NCBI GenBank assembly: GCA_965662895.1
Contig: CBFIJH010000020.1
Coordinates: 1 to 22,465 of the forward strand
Source: Candidatus Poseidoniaceae archaeon
GTDB taxonomy: Archaea > Thermoplasmatota > Poseidoniia > Poseidoniales > Poseidoniaceae
Reading direction: 5' to 3'
Length of the DNA stretch: 22,465 nucleotides
The position numbers and the translations under genes are program-made. Of this stretch, positions 1-16,351 are shown piece by piece. Position 1 is the first letter of the stretch. Each line of letters begins with the position of its first letter. The notes under the pieces are model-generated. The model was given only the letters and a program-made list of their open reading frames with translations. It did no database searches and had not been told where the DNA came from.

Positions 1-272
1 ATTTCATGATGATGGGCTTCTTCTTTCGCCTTGTAGAGGTCAGCCTCCTTGTCATCGCTTGAAATAATTTCATCATCAACAGCGGCTTGCCACGCTTTCT
101 TTGCGTCGTTATAATGCGCTTCTTCGTCTTCCCACGCGTGGTGCTTCATATCAGCAACGACAACACCAAGACCAACGTAGGAGACAACGGCCAATCCGAG
201 AATCATCCCAGCCATCATCAACGCACGCATCCAAACAGCGTTCTTGACGTCGCTGTTTCCTGCTCCGCCCAT
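1..272 (-). CDS. Partial (runs off window) membrane protein directly downstream of coxA; probable oxidase-operon subunit (subunit III with N-terminal extension, or accessory)
   Basis: Not in the ORF track; translated by hand from ATG 272, which overlaps the coxA stop as TGATG, with SD-like GGGGAGGAG upstream. Open to the window edge: MGGAGNSDVKNAVWMRALMMAGMILGLAVVSYVGLGVVVADMKHHAWEDEEAHYNDAKKAWQAAVDDEIISSDDKEADLYKAKEEAHHHE. One TM helix. Identity is inferred from position only. Confidence 0.75.
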   Translation of the reverse strand, partial: MGGAGNSDVKNAVWMRALMMAGMILGLAVVSYVGLGVVVADMKHHAWEDEEAHYNDAKKAWQAAVDDEIISSDDKEADLYKAKEEAHHHE

Positions 273-2671
273 CAAATCTCCTCCCCAGTTGTGGAAAGTA
301 CGGCTGCACTAACCACGGTGGATTTCTTGGCTCCTTCACCTTTCTTCTTGCCTTTCCACAACTTCTCTTTCATGGAACTATCAGCATGATGCCCGTAGAT
401 TTCGTTCATGTCACGCTGTGTTGGAATGACGTGGAAAGAAGGTGTTGGAGGAGGCGAGGTTGTCGACCATTCGAGCGACCATCCACCCCATGGGTCTTTG
501 CCAGCTTTCTCTCCGTTCTTTCCAGAGTAGATGATGTTCCAAACGAGGAGGAGTTGGCTCAATCCAAAGATGAAAGCGAAGATGGAAATCGCCATGTTGT
601 ACTCAGCAAATCCACTTTCAACGGTGTAGGAGTGCGTTCGTCGAGGCATTCCTTGGATACCAAGAGCGTGCATTGGCCAGAAAGCGGCGTTGTAGGAGGC
701 AAATCCGATCAAGAAGTGCCAAAGTCCGAGCGTTTCGTTGAGCTTTCGACCAGTAGCCTTCGGGTACCAGTAGTAGACACCAGAGAACAGTGCAAACACC
801 GTACCGCCGATGAACACGTAGTGGAAGTGAGCGACAACGAAGTAGGAGTCGTGGAAGTGCGTATCAAGACCAGCAACTGGGAAGAACATTCCAGAGATAC
901 CACCGAGTGTGAAGGTAATGAGGAATCCAAGCGCCCAAAGGGTGTGGGTCTTCATGACGAGAGAACCGCCCCAAAGCGTCATCAGCCAGTTGAAAATCTT
1001 CGCACCGGTTGGAATCGCAACGGCCATGGTTGTAATCATGAACGCAGCACGCCAGAATGGGTCCATACCCGATGTGAGCATGTGGTGCCCCCAAACAATG
1101 AACCCGACAATACCGATTCCAGCCATGGCGAAGACCATCGACTTGTAGCCAAAGATGGATCGGCGAGCGCTTGTTGCAAGGACTTCAGAGACGATACCAA
1201 ACGCTGGGATGATGACAACATAGACTTCAGGATGTCCAAAGAACCAGAACAGGTGCTGGAACAGCAACGGATCTCCTCCGCCCGTAAAGAATGTCGAACC
1301 TATCGTATGGTCAAACATCAGGAAGGCAACACCGATGATCAATGCCGGCAAGGACATGAACAGCATGAAGACGCTGACAAACGCCGACCAGGTGAAGAGT
1401 GGCATTTTCATCCACGTGATTCCCGGTGCACGCATGGTGAACACTGTGGTGATGAAGTTCACACCACCGAGCGTTGACGATGCACCGAGCATCAGCATTC
1501 CCGCAATGAACGAAGTCGTACCTGCGTTGGCACCGTAATCACCAGCGTTGTTCAAGGACGAATAAGGCGGATACATAACCCATGTAATGTCTGCACCTTC
1601 ACCGGACCAAATGCCTCCAAAGATAAGCGGCGCCGAGAAGACGAGAAGCCAGAGACCCATTGCGTTGATTCGTGGGAAAGCCAAATCCTTCGCACCGATT
1701 TGCAGTGGCAGGACGTAATTGAGGAATCCAGCGATCATTGGCATCGCGCCAAGGAAAATCATTGTGGTTCCGTGCAACGTGAAGAACGAGTTGTATTCCT
1801 GTTGTGTGAGGAAGTCGTTTTCCGGTAGAGCAAGTTGGATACGGAACAAGAGAGCAAGTACTCCGCCGACGAGGAAGAAGAAGAATCCAAACAGGAAGTA
1901 CAGGATTCCAACTTCCTTGTGGTCGGTCGTTGTCAGCCATGGCTTGAGGTAACTCCAGAAGCTTCCGATGGTGAAGGTATCAGGGCTTCGTCGGTAGAAG
2001 ACCCACATGGTTCCGAGAAGAATAATGGAGATTGAAAGACCTATAGCGGTGAGAAGAATCACCAGTGGAGGTGCGCTCAGAGCTTGGGGATCCGCATTGA
2101 GGCCCGGAACAACGATGTTCTCAATGTTCCAGTAATCGTTGCCCGCACCATCAGGGCTGACGTCACCAAATGCTGTGGCGCCACCACTTGCTGCACCACC
2201 GCTTACGGCGTTTCCAATGATGGTCATTTCAACGGTTGCAGTATCGGTTGCAGGTGCTGTGAATTCGAAATCCCATGAACGGAACTTGTTTCCGTCCTCG
2301 GTATGGGTTAGGCCACCTTCAACGACTTGACTGTAGGACGGATCAATGGTGGTGACGCTTCCACCTCCTTCGACAAGAATGCGGAATCCACCTTGAACAC
2401 CGCTCCATCCTTTCGCAGGGTCGCCGTCTCCATAGAGTGTCATCTCTTCATTGACGAGTGTGACTGTGAAAACGTAGGTTTCGCTTGCATTGAATGTCTC
2501 AGGGAGTCCTTCAACGAGAATGGTGGTGGAACCATCATCGCCGCCAACGTGGCAGGAACAACCAGCGTTGCCCGCACCGCCGATACCGCCAGGGAGTGCG
2601 CTGAATTGTGGAACGAGCATGAGGGCGACGAGAAGCAAACTAAGGACGCCTACGGCACGTCGTCGCATCAC
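272..2671 (-). CDS. coxA: Cytochrome c oxidase subunit I (A1-type) with N-terminal signal peptide, Reeler/choice-of-anchor-V-like domain and extra TM helix
   Basis: Motifs WLTTTDHK, HGTTMIF (heme a His), KDLAFPRIN (D-channel), FWFFGHPEVY (CuB His/Glu/Tyr, A1 signature), VWGHHM, PTGAKIF (K-channel), FHDSYFVVAHFHY and GMPRR. Start is GTG 2671 or ATG 2668, with SD GGAGGTGA. Confidence 0.98.
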   Translation of the reverse strand: MMRRRAVGVLSLLLVALMLVPQFSALPGGIGGAGNAGCSCHVGGDDGSTTILVEGLPETFNASETYVFTVTLVNEEMTLYGDGDPAKGWSGVQGGFRILVEGGGSVTTIDPSYSQVVEGGLTHTEDGNKFRSWDFEFTAPATDTATVEMTIIGNAVSGGAASGGATAFGDVSPDGAGNDYWNIENIVVPGLNADPQALSAPPLVILLTAIGLSISIILLGTMWVFYRRSPDTFTIGSFWSYLKPWLTTTDHKEVGILYFLFGFFFFLVGGVLALLFRIQLALPENDFLTQQEYNSFFTLHGTTMIFLGAMPMIAGFLNYVLPLQIGAKDLAFPRINAMGLWLLVFSAPLIFGGIWSGEGADITWVMYPPYSSLNNAGDYGANAGTTSFIAGMLMLGASSTLGGVNFITTVFTMRAPGITWMKMPLFTWSAFVSVFMLFMSLPALIIGVAFLMFDHTIGSTFFTGGGDPLLFQHLFWFFGHPEVYVVIIPAFGIVSEVLATSARRSIFGYKSMVFAMAGIGIVGFIVWGHHMLTSGMDPFWRAAFMITTMAVAIPTGAKIFNWLMTLWGGSLVMKTHTLWALGFLITFTLGGISGMFFPVAGLDTHFHDSYFVVAHFHYVFIGGTVFALFSGVYYWYPKATGRKLNETLGLWHFLIGFASYNAAFWPMHALGIQGMPRRTHSYTVESGFAEYNMAISIFAFIFGLSQLLLVWNIIYSGKNGEKAGKDPWGGWSLEWSTTSPPPTPSFHVIPTQRDMNEIYGHHADSSMKEKLWKGKKKGEGAKKSTVVSAAVLSTTGEEI

Positions 2672-3651
2672 ATTTCACCTCCGTCATCGTACGTGTTGGA
2701 GGAGCCGGAATCGCTCTTCTTGACGCCGCTGTCGAAATCACAAGTCATCCCTTCGCGTGCAACCACCATGACCTGACCGGTCATGATTGAGTGCTGCATG
2801 CCACAGTACTCTGCACAACGGATTGGGAAGGTACCCGAGTCGTCTGGCATGAAGTACAAGGTTGTGCCTGCTTCAAGCCCCGGAACGAAATCTTCCTTCA
2901 TACCCCACTCAGGGACCCAGAAAGCGTGTTGGACGCCAACGTTCCGAGTATCTGTCGGGTCGACCGGCTTCGATTTCATGGTTGCATCAACCAATTCATC
3001 GCAAGGAACGATCATTGGTTCGGACGGTGTGATGAAGGTGTGGCCGCGTGGGATGTGTTCCCAAGTGTGAATGAGCGCGCCTTCAGCATCGAAAACCTTG
3101 ACGTAGGTATGTCGTCCAAGGTCGTAAACAGCCGTAATCGCCATCATACTGGAGCCGTTGTTGATTTCGTAATCGGTTTTGACGTTGTCCAATTTGACTT
3201 CAATCGCTGCTGCATTGGCGTTACCGGAGGCATCGACTTGCATGACGCCTTGATCCCACTGAACATCAATTCCCGTGCCAGTGTCTTCCCACGTGAGCAT
3301 TTCAGCGTATTCGAATTCGAAATACCACTGGTAGGCGTTGATGTTGATTTCGAAGGAATCTTCTGTGTCAGGGTTCCAAACAGCGGTGTTTGACCCCAGT
3401 GCGAGTACGGTCAACCAAACAACAAGAATGGTCGGCAGAATGTAGAACATCGCCTCCAACGCGGTATTGTGACGATCGACGGGAAACGCCCCGACTTCGA
3501 TGTGATCAAGTTCGGTCGTATCAGGCTCGACACCATCACGATAACGCAAAATCGCCGTAAGCAACCAACCAAATGTGAAAATTGCGACGAGAATTGACCA
3601 GAACATGTATTTGTCATAGAGGACGTAGAAAACGGTATCTTCCGCTGGCAT
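2668..3651 (-). CDS. coxB: Cytochrome c oxidase subunit II (CuA)
   Basis: Two N-terminal TM helices, AYQWYFEFEY aromatic motif, HAFWVP and CuA motif CAEYCGMQHSIM. Stop overlaps the coxA start. Confidence 0.97.
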   Translation of the reverse strand: MPAEDTVFYVLYDKYMFWSILVAIFTFGWLLTAILRYRDGVEPDTTELDHIEVGAFPVDRHNTALEAMFYILPTILVVWLTVLALGSNTAVWNPDTEDSFEININAYQWYFEFEYAEMLTWEDTGTGIDVQWDQGVMQVDASGNANAAAIEVKLDNVKTDYEINNGSSMMAITAVYDLGRHTYVKVFDAEGALIHTWEHIPRGHTFITPSEPMIVPCDELVDATMKSKPVDPTDTRNVGVQHAFWVPEWGMKEDFVPGLEAGTTLYFMPDDSGTFPIRCAEYCGMQHSIMTGQVMVVAREGMTCDFDSGVKKSDSGSSNTYDDGGEM

Positions 3652-4326: not shown

Positions 4327-5544
4327 ATGGGCATTCTACGCAACTACCGCTGGTTGAAAGCCCGTGATTTGAAATCCTATCCGAAACCAGATTTCGCAAA
4401 GAAGGCAGCAACAGAAGCGGAAATCGCCGTGTGCGAAGCATTGTGCCAAATCGAGGACGTCGTCGAAGTCTATCATTCAGCTCGAATCGATCAAATCATC
4501 AGCGGAAAGAGTCGTCGAGAAGCAGACATCATCGCATTGTTGCGCAATCGGATCGTCTTTATCGAAGTCAAGAACTACAAAGGCGAAGTCACGATGGTCG
4601 AGAATGTCCTTCATCAAAACGGCCAATCAAGAGGTTGGACGTTTGCAAAACTCGAGGAGGCAGTCGGCCGTTTTCACGAGATTAGTCGCCACGTTGGTAT
4701 TGAAATCCAACGCGATACCATCGAAACCGTGCTTGCGTGTGTCGGCTATGCGAATGTGGACGAAAGAGTCCAACCACGAGCACTCACCGGCTCGCATGTT
4801 GCAGCATCGAGAGACGAACTGCTCTCACTTCTTTCAACATCGGAGGAGCATCATGAGGACTTTGATGAGGAGACGCTCAAAGCGTTGAAGAAACTCCTTT
4901 CGATGTTTGGAACGTGGGATGCGATTGAATTCCCAAATGAGGCTCGACATGAAGGCGATCTCATCCAACCACGCGATGAAGTACGCGAATGGAGAATTAC
5001 TTATTCAGAACTTCAAATCCGTAATCAGCGAAGCTGGTGGAGCACATTTTTCCGAGGGCCAAAGTTTGTTGGAGATTTGATTCCACGTCTTGGAAACAAT
5101 GTCAAAACGGTGGATATTGATCAACATCAACTTGCAGTGTTGCACAATCCTCACGAGCGAATCGATGAAGAGTATCCCTTTGAGGATGTAGCCGTCCTGA
5201 CGTTCGGATACAAGGAAGTTCCAGATTGGAGCAAGGTTCAGTTGATGGAACCAACGAAGAAGACGAAAGAGAATCGAGAAACGGTTATCCCAACTCCACA
5301 AGAAGGCGATGTTTACCACCAAGCCCGAATTGTTCGCCACCTGACGCAGGGCGCACACCAAGGCATTGTGTTCCGTCTTGACGACAAGAACGAGGGTGTG
5401 CTGTGGCGAGACCAAATGTCCGTCATGGAATGGGACAACAAAGACGTTCTTTTGGCCGTCAATTCAGCTCACGATGTTGAAGTGACTTCTTCAACGTTCA
5501 ACAAAGCAAAGAAACGATGGCGCATCAAAGTCAAGACGATTTGA
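4327..5544 (+). CDS. NERD-type PD-(D/E)xK nuclease with C-terminal S1/OB-fold-like domain
   Basis: AEIAVCEAL...EADIIAL...IVFIEVKNYKG is the NERD signature. The C-terminal PQEGDVYHQARIV...GIVFRLDDKNEGVLW...DVEVTS...RIKV matches the S1 strand pattern. Confidence 0.82.
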   Translation: MGILRNYRWLKARDLKSYPKPDFAKKAATEAEIAVCEALCQIEDVVEVYHSARIDQIISGKSRREADIIALLRNRIVFIEVKNYKGEVTMVENVLHQNGQSRGWTFAKLEEAVGRFHEISRHVGIEIQRDTIETVLACVGYANVDERVQPRALTGSHVAASRDELLSLLSTSEEHHEDFDEETLKALKKLLSMFGTWDAIEFPNEARHEGDLIQPRDEVREWRITYSELQIRNQRSWWSTFFRGPKFVGDLIPRLGNNVKTVDIDQHQLAVLHNPHERIDEEYPFEDVAVLTFGYKEVPDWSKVQLMEPTKKTKENRETVIPTPQEGDVYHQARIVRHLTQGAHQGIVFRLDDKNEGVLWRDQMSVMEWDNKDVLLAVNSAHDVEVTSSTFNKAKKRWRIKVKTI

Positions 5545-10280: not shown

Positions 10281-11408
10281 ATGGGCGCCACCGATGCGAA
10301 CGGTCATCTTCCGTTTCCTCTACCCAATCGTCCGTTTGCAATTTCTCAGGAATGGCGCGATTTGACTTTCATGCATTGGAAGGTGGATGCCAGTCGGCTC
10401 AAATCCCACCTTCCGAATGGGTTGGAGGTTGATACGTTTCAAGGAGAGGCATACGTCGGTGTCATCCCGTTTGTCATGAAAAACGTTCATCCAAGGGGTC
10501 TTCCAACCATTCCCGGAATCTCAACCTTCGCTGAATTCAATGTTCGAACGTATGTCATCAAAGATGGCCAGCCGGGTGTGTTTTTCCTGACACTGGATGC
10601 AAAGAGCCTCTTGACGTGTTCCTACGCTCCGCGTGCCTACGGTCTTGCATATCGATACGCAAAAGCCAAGGTGAAGCGAGTTGATGAAACGCTGCATTGG
10701 CAGTCCTGCCGCTCGAGCGATGGTTCAGAATTGCGTGGTACATCGGTTGCAGAAGGTTCGGTACGTACTGCAGAAAAGGAATCGCTTGAGAACTTCCTGT
10801 TCGAACGGTACTGTCTCTATACGGAACACAAAGGCTGTCTTCGACGCGCCTATGTTCAGCATCAACCGTGGTCTTTCCAAGACGGAGAAGTCAATCTTGA
10901 GACAAATACATTGCTTGAATCGTACAATTTGGAACTGGATGTTCTTGCGCCTGATTTGGTTCATGTCTCCAAAGGGCTACCGGTCAAGACCTGGTCGATT
11001 GAGGTCGCTGAACGAATTGATATCAACGATCAGCGCGACTTTTTGTTTTTGGATGGGGACTGCGGTCTTTGTCACCGTCTGGCGACCTTTCTCGACAAGC
11101 GATTGGCCAAAGGAAAGCAACTTGGTTATCGCCCGATTCTTCATGAGGATGCACAACGTGTTCTCCAATCGCTTCCAGCCAAACTTCGCGATGCTGATTC
11201 GGTCTATCTCATTCGGAATGGAAAACCATACATTCGCTCTGCAGCGGGGATTCGATGTGTCTTGTACATGCGTTGGTATTACAAGATGTGGTTCCCGTTC
11301 CTATGGTTGATACCATTACCACTTCGCAACATTGGCTATCGTCTAATCGCCAAATACCGTCACAAGTTCTTCAAACGACCATCAGAATGTTTGTTTCGTG
11401 TGGATTGA
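10281..11408 (+). CDS. DUF2071/YqjF-family domain fused to a DCC (DUF393) thiol-disulfide oxidoreductase domain
   Basis: N-terminal QEWRDLTFMHW, LEVDTFQGEAYVGVIPF, EFNVRTYV, GVFFLTLDA and FLFERYCLY. C-terminal FLDGDCGLC (DxxCxxC), YIRSAA and PLRNIGYRLIAKYRHKFF. Confidence 0.9.
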   Translation: MGATDANGHLPFPLPNRPFAISQEWRDLTFMHWKVDASRLKSHLPNGLEVDTFQGEAYVGVIPFVMKNVHPRGLPTIPGISTFAEFNVRTYVIKDGQPGVFFLTLDAKSLLTCSYAPRAYGLAYRYAKAKVKRVDETLHWQSCRSSDGSELRGTSVAEGSVRTAEKESLENFLFERYCLYTEHKGCLRRAYVQHQPWSFQDGEVNLETNTLLESYNLELDVLAPDLVHVSKGLPVKTWSIEVAERIDINDQRDFLFLDGDCGLCHRLATFLDKRLAKGKQLGYRPILHEDAQRVLQSLPAKLRDADSVYLIRNGKPYIRSAAGIRCVLYMRWYYKMWFPFLWLIPLPLRNIGYRLIAKYRHKFFKRPSECLFRVD

Positions 11409-13700: not shown

Positions 13701-13883
13701 ATGCCAAGGAGGAAGTACGGTCGTCTACGCAAGACCGTTGAACTTCCTCCAAAAGAAAACTGTTCACGTTGCCGTTCAGGCAAGCATTGTCCCATTCCTG
13801 GGCATTCTGGTAAGGATGTGACGCCACATCGAGAATGGGCAGGGCCTGAATCCATCGAGAAGCGAAAGCGATCACGTTCGTGA
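13701..13883 (+). CDS. Putative basic Cys/His zinc-binding microprotein (60 aa)
   Basis: MPRRKYGRLRKTVELPPKENCSRCRSGKHCPIPGH... gives C-x2-C-x5-C-x4-H. Highly basic; fills the gap and overlaps the xerA 3' end by 12 nt. Confidence 0.65.
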   Translation: MPRRKYGRLRKTVELPPKENCSRCRSGKHCPIPGHSGKDVTPHREWAGPESIEKRKRSRS

Positions 13884-14963
13884 GATGTCAATACCGAACG
13901 TTTCGGTTCCACCTTCTTGTTCGACCAACTTCTCATCGCGTTGTGCTTGTTCCTCATCCATCGTTTGGCGCATCGATTGTGCACGATGGTAGACCTCTCG
14001 CAAGGTTTGGTCGGAAATATCGAGATAAACACGGGTCGTTGCAATGCTGGTGTGACCGAGTAATCGCTGAATGGTAACAAGATCAGCACCACGTTCAAGC
14101 AATCCTGTCGCGAAGTTGTGACGAAGAACGTGCGGTGTCAACTTCCCTTTCGGAAGTCCTGCTTCGATAGCAAGTTGATCCATCAAGCGTTGGACACCAC
14201 GCGGTTGCAAACGTCGTCCTGCTTGATTGAGAAGGAATGGAAAATCGTCATCACGAATGCGAGAATTTCGAATCGGGAGATAGGCATCGATGCAGTTCTT
14301 GGTACGTTGTGTAAACAGGACGATGCGGTCCTTGTCACCTTTTCCACCAAGGACTTTGGCATGCAAACCTTCGAGTTCCAAATCGGATAAATTGAGATTG
14401 CACAATTCTGAAACGCGCATACCTGTATCCAAGAGAACGGTGACAACGACCGAAGCAATCGCATTTTCGGAGGTGTTGGCGGCTTCAATGACTGAAGTCA
14501 ACTCGCGACGGGTTAACGTTCGTGGCAGTTTTCGTCCCGTACGAGCGCGTACCAAATGGTCTGGCCATCGATGACCGAGCCACTTGATCATGTGGCGAGC
14601 AGCAGCAAGGCGTGCATTGTAGGTGGACGGACTCAACTCACTCATGGAATGTGTCCAGCGATCGATGCGGCCATTAAGCGGTTCAAGGCGATTGGCTAGC
14701 GTTACCACATTCATCGATTCAAGGTCGTGCTCGGAGAGAACGTTTTCGCCCGGCAACGTTGTTTCAACAAGCGCCCGCAGGCCGTTAAGGTAGGTTTTGC
14801 GCGTGTTCTCAGATTTGTTTTCTGTACGCAATTGTTGGTCGTAACAATCCAACCAAGGGAGGTTCTGGATGTGAACGAGACGTGGAGGAAGCTGAACGTC
14901 TTCATCGGTAAGACGACGCTGGCTCGGTCGTTGAGCCTTCGGCTGTGTGTATTTTCTCTCCAT
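13872..14963 (-). CDS. xerA: XerA/XerCD-like tyrosine recombinase
   Basis: Complete catalytic set: DTGMRVSEL (R), GGKGDKDR (K), TPHVLRHNFAT (HxxR), LLGH (H) and TTRVY (Y). Housekeeping context with no phage genes. Confidence 0.9.
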   Translation of the reverse strand: MERKYTQPKAQRPSQRRLTDEDVQLPPRLVHIQNLPWLDCYDQQLRTENKSENTRKTYLNGLRALVETTLPGENVLSEHDLESMNVVTLANRLEPLNGRIDRWTHSMSELSPSTYNARLAAARHMIKWLGHRWPDHLVRARTGRKLPRTLTRRELTSVIEAANTSENAIASVVVTVLLDTGMRVSELCNLNLSDLELEGLHAKVLGGKGDKDRIVLFTQRTKNCIDAYLPIRNSRIRDDDFPFLLNQAGRRLQPRGVQRLMDQLAIEAGLPKGKLTPHVLRHNFATGLLERGADLVTIQRLLGHTSIATTRVYLDISDQTLREVYHRAQSMRQTMDEEQAQRDEKLVEQEGGTETFGIDISRT

Positions 14964-15078: not shown

Positions 15079-16296
15079 TCAAGCGTTGGTCTCTTCGCTT
15101 GAAAGCGAATCACGACCGATTGGTGGTGACATCAACACCGCCTTTCGTAGCGTTGCTCGCAACGATTCCAACTCACCATAACAAATCAACACGTCATCGT
15201 AGCGAAGTTGGACACTCGGTTCCGGATTCCACATCATCTGGTCACCACGACTGAGCGCATAGACGAGAGGTTGCTCACTGTTGGCAAAGATTTCGCCAAT
15301 GGAGCGACCGATGAGATTCGGATGATGCAACAACTGAATCGATAACACGCCTTCACCGGGAACGGTTCGCAGCAATTTGTCCAATTCGACTTCGGTAAAC
15401 ACAGCATCGTTGATGACAAAATCGATGATCTCGCCAGCAACGTTCACGCCACTGGCCTTCTCAATTCCTTCCAATCCTGGACTCGAATTGACTTCGAGAA
15501 CAAGTGGCCCGTGTATGGATTCGAGCAAATCAACCCCAGCGACACGAAGACCGAGAACGCGTGCTGCTCGGCATGCAACTTCCTCAAAAGTAGGATCGAG
15601 GTCAACAGGTTCAACTGTTCCATTGAGGTGGAAGTTGCTTCGGAATTCACGCCCACGTGCACGTCGTCGCATGCAAGCAACGACGCGATCACCAACGACA
15701 AGGGCGCGAATATCCGTGCCGTGTGATTCAGCAATGTATTCTTGAATCAGGATGGCTTTCTTGGTGTGCAACAATCCTTGGACGAGGTTTCGGGTCTCGT
15801 GATGAGTGTGGCGTAAGAAGACGCCTTGACCTTGCGTTCCTTCGGTCACTTTGACGACGACAGGAAGGCCACCGACCGCTTCAATGGCGTGTTCGATATC
15901 GGCCGTATCTCGGACGTAGACTGTACGAGGAACGGGTATCTTGTTGCGAGCGAGCAGTTGTGAAGCGTGCAATTTGTCTCGACTTTGAAGAATACCTTGG
16001 CCGGTATTGGCTGTCCAAATCCCCATTTGCTCGAGGTGGCGTAGAACTGCGACACCATGCCGCGTAATGGAATGGCCGATACGTGGAATGACTGCGTCAA
16101 AGGCTGCTGGTCGCCCTTCATGCATGACGTCAATGCCGTCGTCATCAACGAACAATGAGAAGCTGATCGGATCAAGGACATTGACATCAAGCCCACGTTT
16201 TCGCGCTTCTTCAACCAGCCGTCGTGTCGAATACAATCGAGCGCCGCGAGAAAGGACGGCTAGACGCAGCCCACCCTCTTCTCGCAACTCGGTCAT
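15079..16296 (-). CDS. rimK: RimK-family ATP-grasp alpha-L-glutamate ligase with C-terminal RCK_C (TrkA-C) domain
   Basis: LYSTRRLVEEA, FDAVIPRIG, SRDKL, GTQGQGV, QEYIAE, DIRALVVG, FRSNFHLNG, GVDLL and LEVNSSPGLEGIE. Tail LIGRSIGEI...ALSRGDQMMWNPEPSVQLRYDDVLICYG matches RCK_C. Confidence 0.93.
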   Translation of the reverse strand: MTELREEGGLRLAVLSRGARLYSTRRLVEEARKRGLDVNVLDPISFSLFVDDDGIDVMHEGRPAAFDAVIPRIGHSITRHGVAVLRHLEQMGIWTANTGQGILQSRDKLHASQLLARNKIPVPRTVYVRDTADIEHAIEAVGGLPVVVKVTEGTQGQGVFLRHTHHETRNLVQGLLHTKKAILIQEYIAESHGTDIRALVVGDRVVACMRRRARGREFRSNFHLNGTVEPVDLDPTFEEVACRAARVLGLRVAGVDLLESIHGPLVLEVNSSPGLEGIEKASGVNVAGEIIDFVINDAVFTEVELDKLLRTVPGEGVLSIQLLHHPNLIGRSIGEIFANSEQPLVYALSRGDQMMWNPEPSVQLRYDDVLICYGELESLRATLRKAVLMSPPIGRDSLSSEETNA

Positions 16297-16351
16297 GGTC
16301 AAAAGAAAACCTGAGGGGATTTCAAATGCTCGGCCGTTTTGGGTCTAACCC

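Follow-up and report, generated by a model that had tools for sequence, protein, structure and literature searches.

In caa3 oxidases, a class I cytochrome c is carried on the C-terminus of subunit II. The haem-copper catalytic subunit of qNOR (NorZ) has an N-terminal exported domain followed by an extra helix. An earlier note on the DNA described here took the lack of a soluble exported domain as the norm for subunit I, and qNOR is the exception to that norm. In cytochrome f, the N-terminal amine is a haem ligand. Cox11 has an Ig-like fold and uses a CxC motif.

The archaea of Marine Group II are abundant; as of 10.1101/349548 they were uncultured, and the accessible part of that study notes a Rieske protein and cytochrome b in the group and the absence of canonical bc1 genes. 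The main text of a survey of archaeal cytochromes c (PMC4429474), in its accessible form, contains neither "marine group" nor "CxCH". A fusion of oxidase subunit I to a choice-of-anchor V domain was not found described in the open-access literature searched, which also yielded no relevant paper on the choice-of-anchor V domain or on a link between cytochrome f and Reeler. Here we analyze such a fusion and its relatives.

Results

The analyzed window is the whole 22,465-nucleotide stretch, which is contig C20 in a genome of 1.86 Mb at 92% completeness; its named homologues come from Poseidoniaceae or Thermoplasmatota, which places the host archaeon in Marine Group II. The coxA gene (272..2671, minus strand), assigned from its open reading frame, Pfam, and NF041895, encodes a 799-residue A-type haem-copper oxidase subunit I with an N-terminal fusion. 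Its start codon (GTG 2671 or ATG 2668) overlaps the coxB stop and is preceded by a GGAGGTG element. The usual subunit I start, WLTTTDHK, begins at residue 245, leaving 244 residues ahead of it. The N-terminus is hydrophobic over residues 1–31 and reads as a signal peptide (residues 1–25, 2597..2671, minus strand, from sequence and hydropathy) with predicted cleavage after A25. NF041895 (choice_anch_V) matches residues 17–165 with 62.8 bits against a cut-off of 42, and this match, the structural model, and fold searches define an exported domain (residues 26–192, 2096..2596, minus strand) predicted to be a β-sandwich of the Reeler/cytochrome f type. Hydropathy places a single extra transmembrane helix (residues 196–226, 1994..2086, minus strand) ahead of the core helices, where it joins the domain to the oxidase core. 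The earlier note had described about 240 additional residues comprising a signal peptide, a CxCH domain, and one extra helix, and this architecture was confirmed, with the CxCH motif at the position given there.

The remainder of CoxA is a conventional oxidase core. Pfam COX1 spans residues 254–701, and the core motifs are present (H300, PRIN 333, HPEVY 480, HH 529, PTGAK 554, and HFH 615). The protein has the six histidine ligands, HPEVY, and D- and K-channel motifs of an A-type oxidase, along with a CuA-bearing subunit II; its best family is TIGR02891, at 638 bits, below the 670.75 cut-off of that model. Subunit II is encoded by coxB (2668..3651, minus strand; Pfam and alignment), which keeps all CuA ligands and the QW-x-W entry motif. 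Pfam found only COX2 on CoxB and no fused donor, so the class I cytochrome c that marks a caa3 subunit II is absent. CoxB has an insertion of about 60 residues after the QW-x-W strand that is present in a same-genus copy and absent in the 15 other aligned heads. The next gene of the operon (3..275, minus strand) is cut by the contig end, leaving only its start; it is probably subunit III, since by eye its start resembles that of the gene at the same position in L057, a locus of the same genus, and that gene has motifs like those of subunit III. Elsewhere the window encodes a NERD nuclease-domain protein (4327–5544), a DUF2071 domain fused to a DCC1-like thiol-disulphide oxidoreductase domain (10281–11408), a Xer-like tyrosine recombinase (13872–14963), and a RimK-type ATP-grasp ligase with a weakly matched TrkA-C-like C-terminal domain (15079–16302).

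The earlier note considered that the fusion might be an artefact, with relatives encoding the domain as a separate gene. A junction query was counted when it gave one continuous match in a frame of more than 600 codons, and by this measure, in which a single-protein query can miss distant cases, a continuous fused CoxA was found in 43 of 46 Poseidoniales genomes; the artefact was rejected on this result. The fused form is present in 30 of 30 genomes of the host's own family and in 13 of 16 from another Poseidoniales family. Two of the three misses lack any CoxA-level match, and the third runs off a contig end. Beyond the order, fused CoxA was detected in two of four further genomes of the class and in one of 151 outside it (G167, with two copies). 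GCxCH is found in 45 of 47 fused homologues; of the other two, one is truncated and the other carries Arg in place of the first Cys. A second, divergent oxidase (37% identity) is also fused in three genomes (L054:5914-9581, L055, and L056). A free CxCH gene comes after the second-oxidase operon of L054. The five oxidases checked from three other families all have an unfused CoxA. In a quick tree, built without near-identical same-genus loci and without rows holding ambiguous residues, all 25 CoxA-fused domains fall on one branch (SH-aLRT 95) together with three free anchored copies, one of which comes from the host genome. The CoxA-domain fusion is old.

C38-S-C40-H41 (2549..2560, minus strand) is the proposed contracted haem c attachment motif, and H123 (2303..2305, minus strand) is a candidate distal ligand or hydrogen-bonding residue. 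Whether CxCH and the second His were kept in related coxA genes was a check proposed in the earlier note; all 23 of 23 aligned fused domains have C38, C40, H41, and H123. Among 372 distinct domains of the wider choice-of-anchor V family, the motif reads CxCH in 257, CxxCH in 98, and Cx4CH in 9, and 8 have none. After correction of register shifts by eye, H123 is kept in 359 and absent in 13 of the 372; Gln replaces it in eight, two of which are Rieske-operon copies, and Tyr in four. Alignment of the same 372 sequences shows a conserved N154-x-V156-x-G158 motif (2198..2212, minus strand), with the three residues retained in 347, 349, and 364 sequences, respectively. In the D179-x-W181 motif (2129..2137, minus strand), Asp is present in 368 of 372 sequences and Trp in 140 of 143. 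Covariation analysis of these 372 domains, with an effective number of 288, detected the pairing of strands and gave no signal between H41 and H123, because both residues are near-invariant. The family comprises 5,319 cluster representatives at E ≤ 0.001. Atlas leads (score 0.90) and one distant CxxCH protein (P0315) may point beyond these archaea, and the plasmid collection gave no match.

The CoxA domain thus has CxCH in place of the canonical CxxCH of c-type cytochromes. The accessible part of PMC7096707 states that spacing differs among haem c motifs and that they depend critically on the Cys-His pair; it also cites a contracted, functional CKCH motif in an anammox cytochrome. The variable spacing before a fixed CH in the CxxCH and Cx4CH variants is typical of haem c motifs and favours haem c as the cofactor.

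The fold of the CoxA domain was modelled as a β-sandwich with a pLDDT of 78.7, the N-terminal 20 residues scoring only 62–68. Cytochrome f ranked first and second among 48,161 chains (Z 9.2, rmsd 4.3, 139 residues aligned; Z 8.8, rmsd 3.6, 137 aligned), with the superposition starting at model residue 4 on chain residue 1. The next matches, cohesins, lie within 1 Z (8.5 and 8.4) and align from near residue 21. Foldseek gave the F-spondin Reeler domain as its best match (E 1.6e-5), and when its matches were rescored, Reeler (Z 9.8, rmsd 2.8, 115 aligned) and cytochrome f (Z 9.4, rmsd 3.4, 142 aligned) were tied. Of the matches at Z ≥ 8, only Reeler and cytochrome f align the motif-bearing N-terminal segment. 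A CxxCH relative modelled with a pLDDT of 87.1 matched cytochrome f at Z 9.0 and 9.0, Reeler at 8.9, and the next fold at 7.9. The copper-binding protein YcnI is low in the fold lists (Z 6.6–6.7), and Cox11 and DOMON structures are not among the 50 matches listed. The modelled fold resembles cytochrome f, in a tie with Reeler and close to cohesins. Searches of PDB sequences and Pfam with alignments A1 and A2 gave no match to cytochrome f (PetA), and solved relatives were not found by sequence at E ≤ 1 (A1), with only chance matches at E ≤ 10 (A2); with no match at the sequence level, homology to cytochrome f is put forward as a hypothesis. Prediction of a complex of the domain, the CoxB head, and haem scored 0.00 and is evidence neither way.

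The host genome encodes seven copies of the domain; six carry CxCH, and the motif of the seventh is spaced more widely. One CxCH paralogue (C12:18805-19617) has a signal peptide and a C-terminal helix and is the first gene of a Rieske/cytochrome b operon ordered domain, small gene, Rieske, cytochrome b, subunit IV fusion. Among Poseidoniales loci sampled once per genus, 21 of 21 have such a stand-alone paralogue, with signal peptide, CxCH domain, and C-terminal helix, at the head of this operon, and a Rieske gene is present in 98 of 101 genomes. Judged from its sequence and gene neighbours, the operon paralogue has the topology and slot of cytochrome c1/f. A Rieske gene is also downstream in seven of seven extra loci outside Poseidoniales, which were picked for likeness of their domain to the operon subunit and are not an unbiased sample. 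Four of the seven come from another Thermoplasmatota family (f26), and in all four the gene in the same slot reads canonical CxxCH; this motif aligns to CxCH with a one-residue insertion. Homologues of the f26 protein (n = 116) have CxxCH in 106 cases, Cx4CH in seven, and no motif in three. The quick tree does not separate whether the CxxCH and CxCH operon genes form one clade; their apparent orthology is based on synteny and a common C-terminal segment. In the f26 paralogues at L098, L100, L101, and L103, which carry CxxCH, Tyr replaces the distal His.

Two other genes of this operon have unusual features. The subunit IV gene (C12:21802-24588; L068:7803-10589) encodes a 928-residue protein in which subunit IV continues into a large insert and ends with a 4Fe-4S plus CCG (HdrD-like) module; the fusion is kept across the 21 Poseidoniales loci (one cut by a contig end), and the gene is short in f26 and in family f15. 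A small membrane protein (L068:5615-6064) lies between the CxCH and Rieske genes in every operon seen; it has a weak DUF7318 match (E 0.007) and is possibly an extra subunit.

The remaining copies include a free membrane-anchored paralogue of 203 residues (C6:48826-49437), which is sister to the fused domain of its own genus in the quick tree and is a candidate mobile shuttle. In two large surface proteins, C2:202571-205090 (839 residues) and C17:21696-24002 (768 residues), the CxCH domain tips a repeat stalk with a C-terminal anchor. These copies show that the domain is not confined to respiration, and their lack of respiratory context counts against the electron-entry reading. If they bind haem, both would be candidate long-reach electron or metal-handling proteins.

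The host genome also encodes a haem c maturation system. CcmF, CcmC, and CcmE were identified, CcmE with the CxxxY motif that the accessible part of PMC9084895 gives for archaeal CcmE; by eye, a CcmA-like ABC gene adjoins ccmC, and a thioredoxin-CcdA-like gene is present. The signal-like N-terminus of CoxA together with CcmC, CcmE, and CcmF provides the exported location and maturation system expected of a c-type cytochrome. PF01578 was matched in 60 of 61 relatives. In contrast, class I cytochrome c (PF00034) was matched in only one of 101 genomes and not in the host genome. The 43 CxxCH matches in the host's open reading frames were inspected by eye, and none resembles a conventional cytochrome; the matches look instead like zinc fingers, Fe-S or thioredoxin motifs, a β-helix position, or spurious frames. 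The Ccm genes are therefore left with no other evident substrate. The genome survey suggested by the earlier note thus returned Ccm genes and two halocyanin-like genes, and no class I cytochrome c.

The domain exceeds the cut-off in 69 of 201 genomes of the phylum: every one of the 50 that belong to the class, and 19 of the 151 others. Each of these 19 genomes has Ccm genes, recognised by CcmE in 14 and by two or three PF01578 matches in five, compared to CcmE in nine of the remaining 132 (CcmE alone counted). These co-occurrences are counted among kin and are not independent.

Discussion

The exported domain of CoxA is most likely a mono-haem c-type cytochrome with the choice-of-anchor V fold and covalently attached haem. 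That it fulfils the full part of a tethered electron entry to the oxidase is, in our judgment, probable. The Ccm genes, the CxxCH variants, the paralogue in the Rieske/cytochrome b operon slot, and the cytochrome f-like fold favour haem c and a tethered donor. The earlier note had offered haem or copper, and donor or assembly chaperone; these data give strong though indirect support to the haem c donor and make the copper or chaperone role less likely.

After export and signal cleavage, archaeal Ccm would attach haem to C38 and C40, with H41 as the proximal ligand. The sixth ligand could be H123; alternatively, the N-terminal amine created by cleavage could take this role, as it does in cytochrome f. 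Pairing of H41 with H123 is doubtful, because two Rieske-operon copies have Gln at the H123 position and the parallel with cytochrome f points to the amine. The extra helix would hold the domain at the oxidase. Electrons would leave the Rieske/cytochrome b complex by its own CxCH subunit, a paralogue of the CoxA domain, and reach that domain either directly or by way of anchored halocyanins or the free anchored paralogue; the domain would pass them on to CuA of CoxB.

The domain might instead bind haem c away from the main path, with halocyanin reducing CuA directly and the domain serving for docking, redox buffering, or contact within a supercomplex. The two halocyanins encoded in the host genome are candidate alternative donors that could feed CuA without the CoxA domain. 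Blue-copper/halocyanin-like genes occur in 93 of 101 genomes, and the intact CuA site and entry tryptophan motif of CoxB would serve such a donor. Both surfaces are acidic (23 acidic and four basic residues on the domain, 35 and 11 on the CoxB head), which counts against direct docking, and related families manage with the unfused CoxA described above. However, eight of the 101 genomes, which are incomplete, have no blue-copper match, and the fusion is retained across nearly all Poseidoniales genomes and in the divergent second oxidase. We consider an off-path haem unlikely. In G143, CoxB is fused to a blue-copper domain (L153:3073-4347) beside an unfused CoxA, and this one case suggests that electron-entry modules may be interchangeable.

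A reading with no cofactor makes the domain a Reeler-like structural or adhesion module in which the two Cys residues form a disulphide and which stabilizes the complex or anchors it to the envelope. The F-spondin match, weak Pfam Reeler matches in nine of 26 family members, and the copies on large surface proteins are in keeping with such a module. On this reading, however, an order whose genomes are small would keep Ccm with nothing to act on, and the fixed CH, the CxxCH variants, and the presence of the domain in both respiratory complexes would go unexplained; we regard it as improbable. Least probable is a copper site or built-in Cox11/CtaG-like chaperone, in which two Cys and two His bind copper and deliver it to CuB or CuA: Cox11 (PF04442) was not found in the 92%-complete host genome, its CxC motif and Ig-like fold are reminiscent of the domain, and YcnI appears in the fold lists, but the CxxCH and Cx4CH variants, the slot in a copper-free Rieske complex, the link to Ccm, and a separate SCO gene are left unexplained. 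Pfam gave no PF04442 match for the CoxA protein, and the genome also has haem A synthase.

The haem c reading can be extended beyond this protein. Choice-of-anchor V may be an unrecognised class of c-type cytochromes homologous to cytochrome f and animal Reeler, with the high-potential respiration of Marine Group II running on contracted-CxCH copies as the c1/f subunit of complex III, the complex IV fusion, and free shuttles; we advance this tentatively, as a possibility that could well prove wrong. In Marine Group II, the domain is a candidate to fill the place of the missing cytochrome both at the Rieske/cytochrome b end and at the oxidase end of the gap. If the proposal is correct, it would explain why these archaea retain haem c maturation genes, add a new oxidase architecture with the donor on subunit I, give the choice-of-anchor V family a function, and establish CxCH as a haem motif throughout the family, one that searches of genomes for CxxCH overlook. 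It would also offer the closest structural lead we found to kin of cytochrome f beyond the oxygenic phototrophs.

The CoxA domain is a member of NF041895 by its profile score, and its model superimposes on the Reeler domain (PF02014). The visible description of NF041895 gives no function, and the CoxA copy is distinguished by its fusion to a respiratory enzyme and its haem c-like motif. In the Kuenenia tetrahaem cytochrome (Ferousi 2019, cited in the accessible part of PMC7096707), a contracted CxCH-type motif (CKCH) is likewise found, but as one site of a multihaem protein, whereas CxCH is the sole motif of a large family here; that the only precedent found for CxCH comes from a multihaem protein counts against the haem reading. 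The haem-copper subunit of qNOR shares the N-terminal exported domain and extra helix. Its domain is a haem-less cytochrome c fold and it oxidises quinol; the enzyme described here is an A-type oxidase with CuA.

Cytochrome f is similar in having a β-sandwich that superimposes from residue 1 (Z 8.5–9.4), a motif near the processed N-terminus, and a C-terminal anchor helix, and the operon paralogue is encoded alongside Rieske and a split cytochrome b. The CoxA domain differs in being shorter (167 versus about 250 residues), in its 10–14% identity and lack of an HMM match, and in its contracted motif, conserved second His, and location on an oxidase. The caa3 oxidases share the A-type core, CuA, and a covalently tethered donor, which is a putative c-type cytochrome here. 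The putative donor is on the N-terminus of subunit I, is a β-sandwich rather than a helical class I protein, and carries CxCH rather than CxxCH. By analogy, the CoxA fusion would work like the cytochrome c of caa3 without being a caa3 oxidase.
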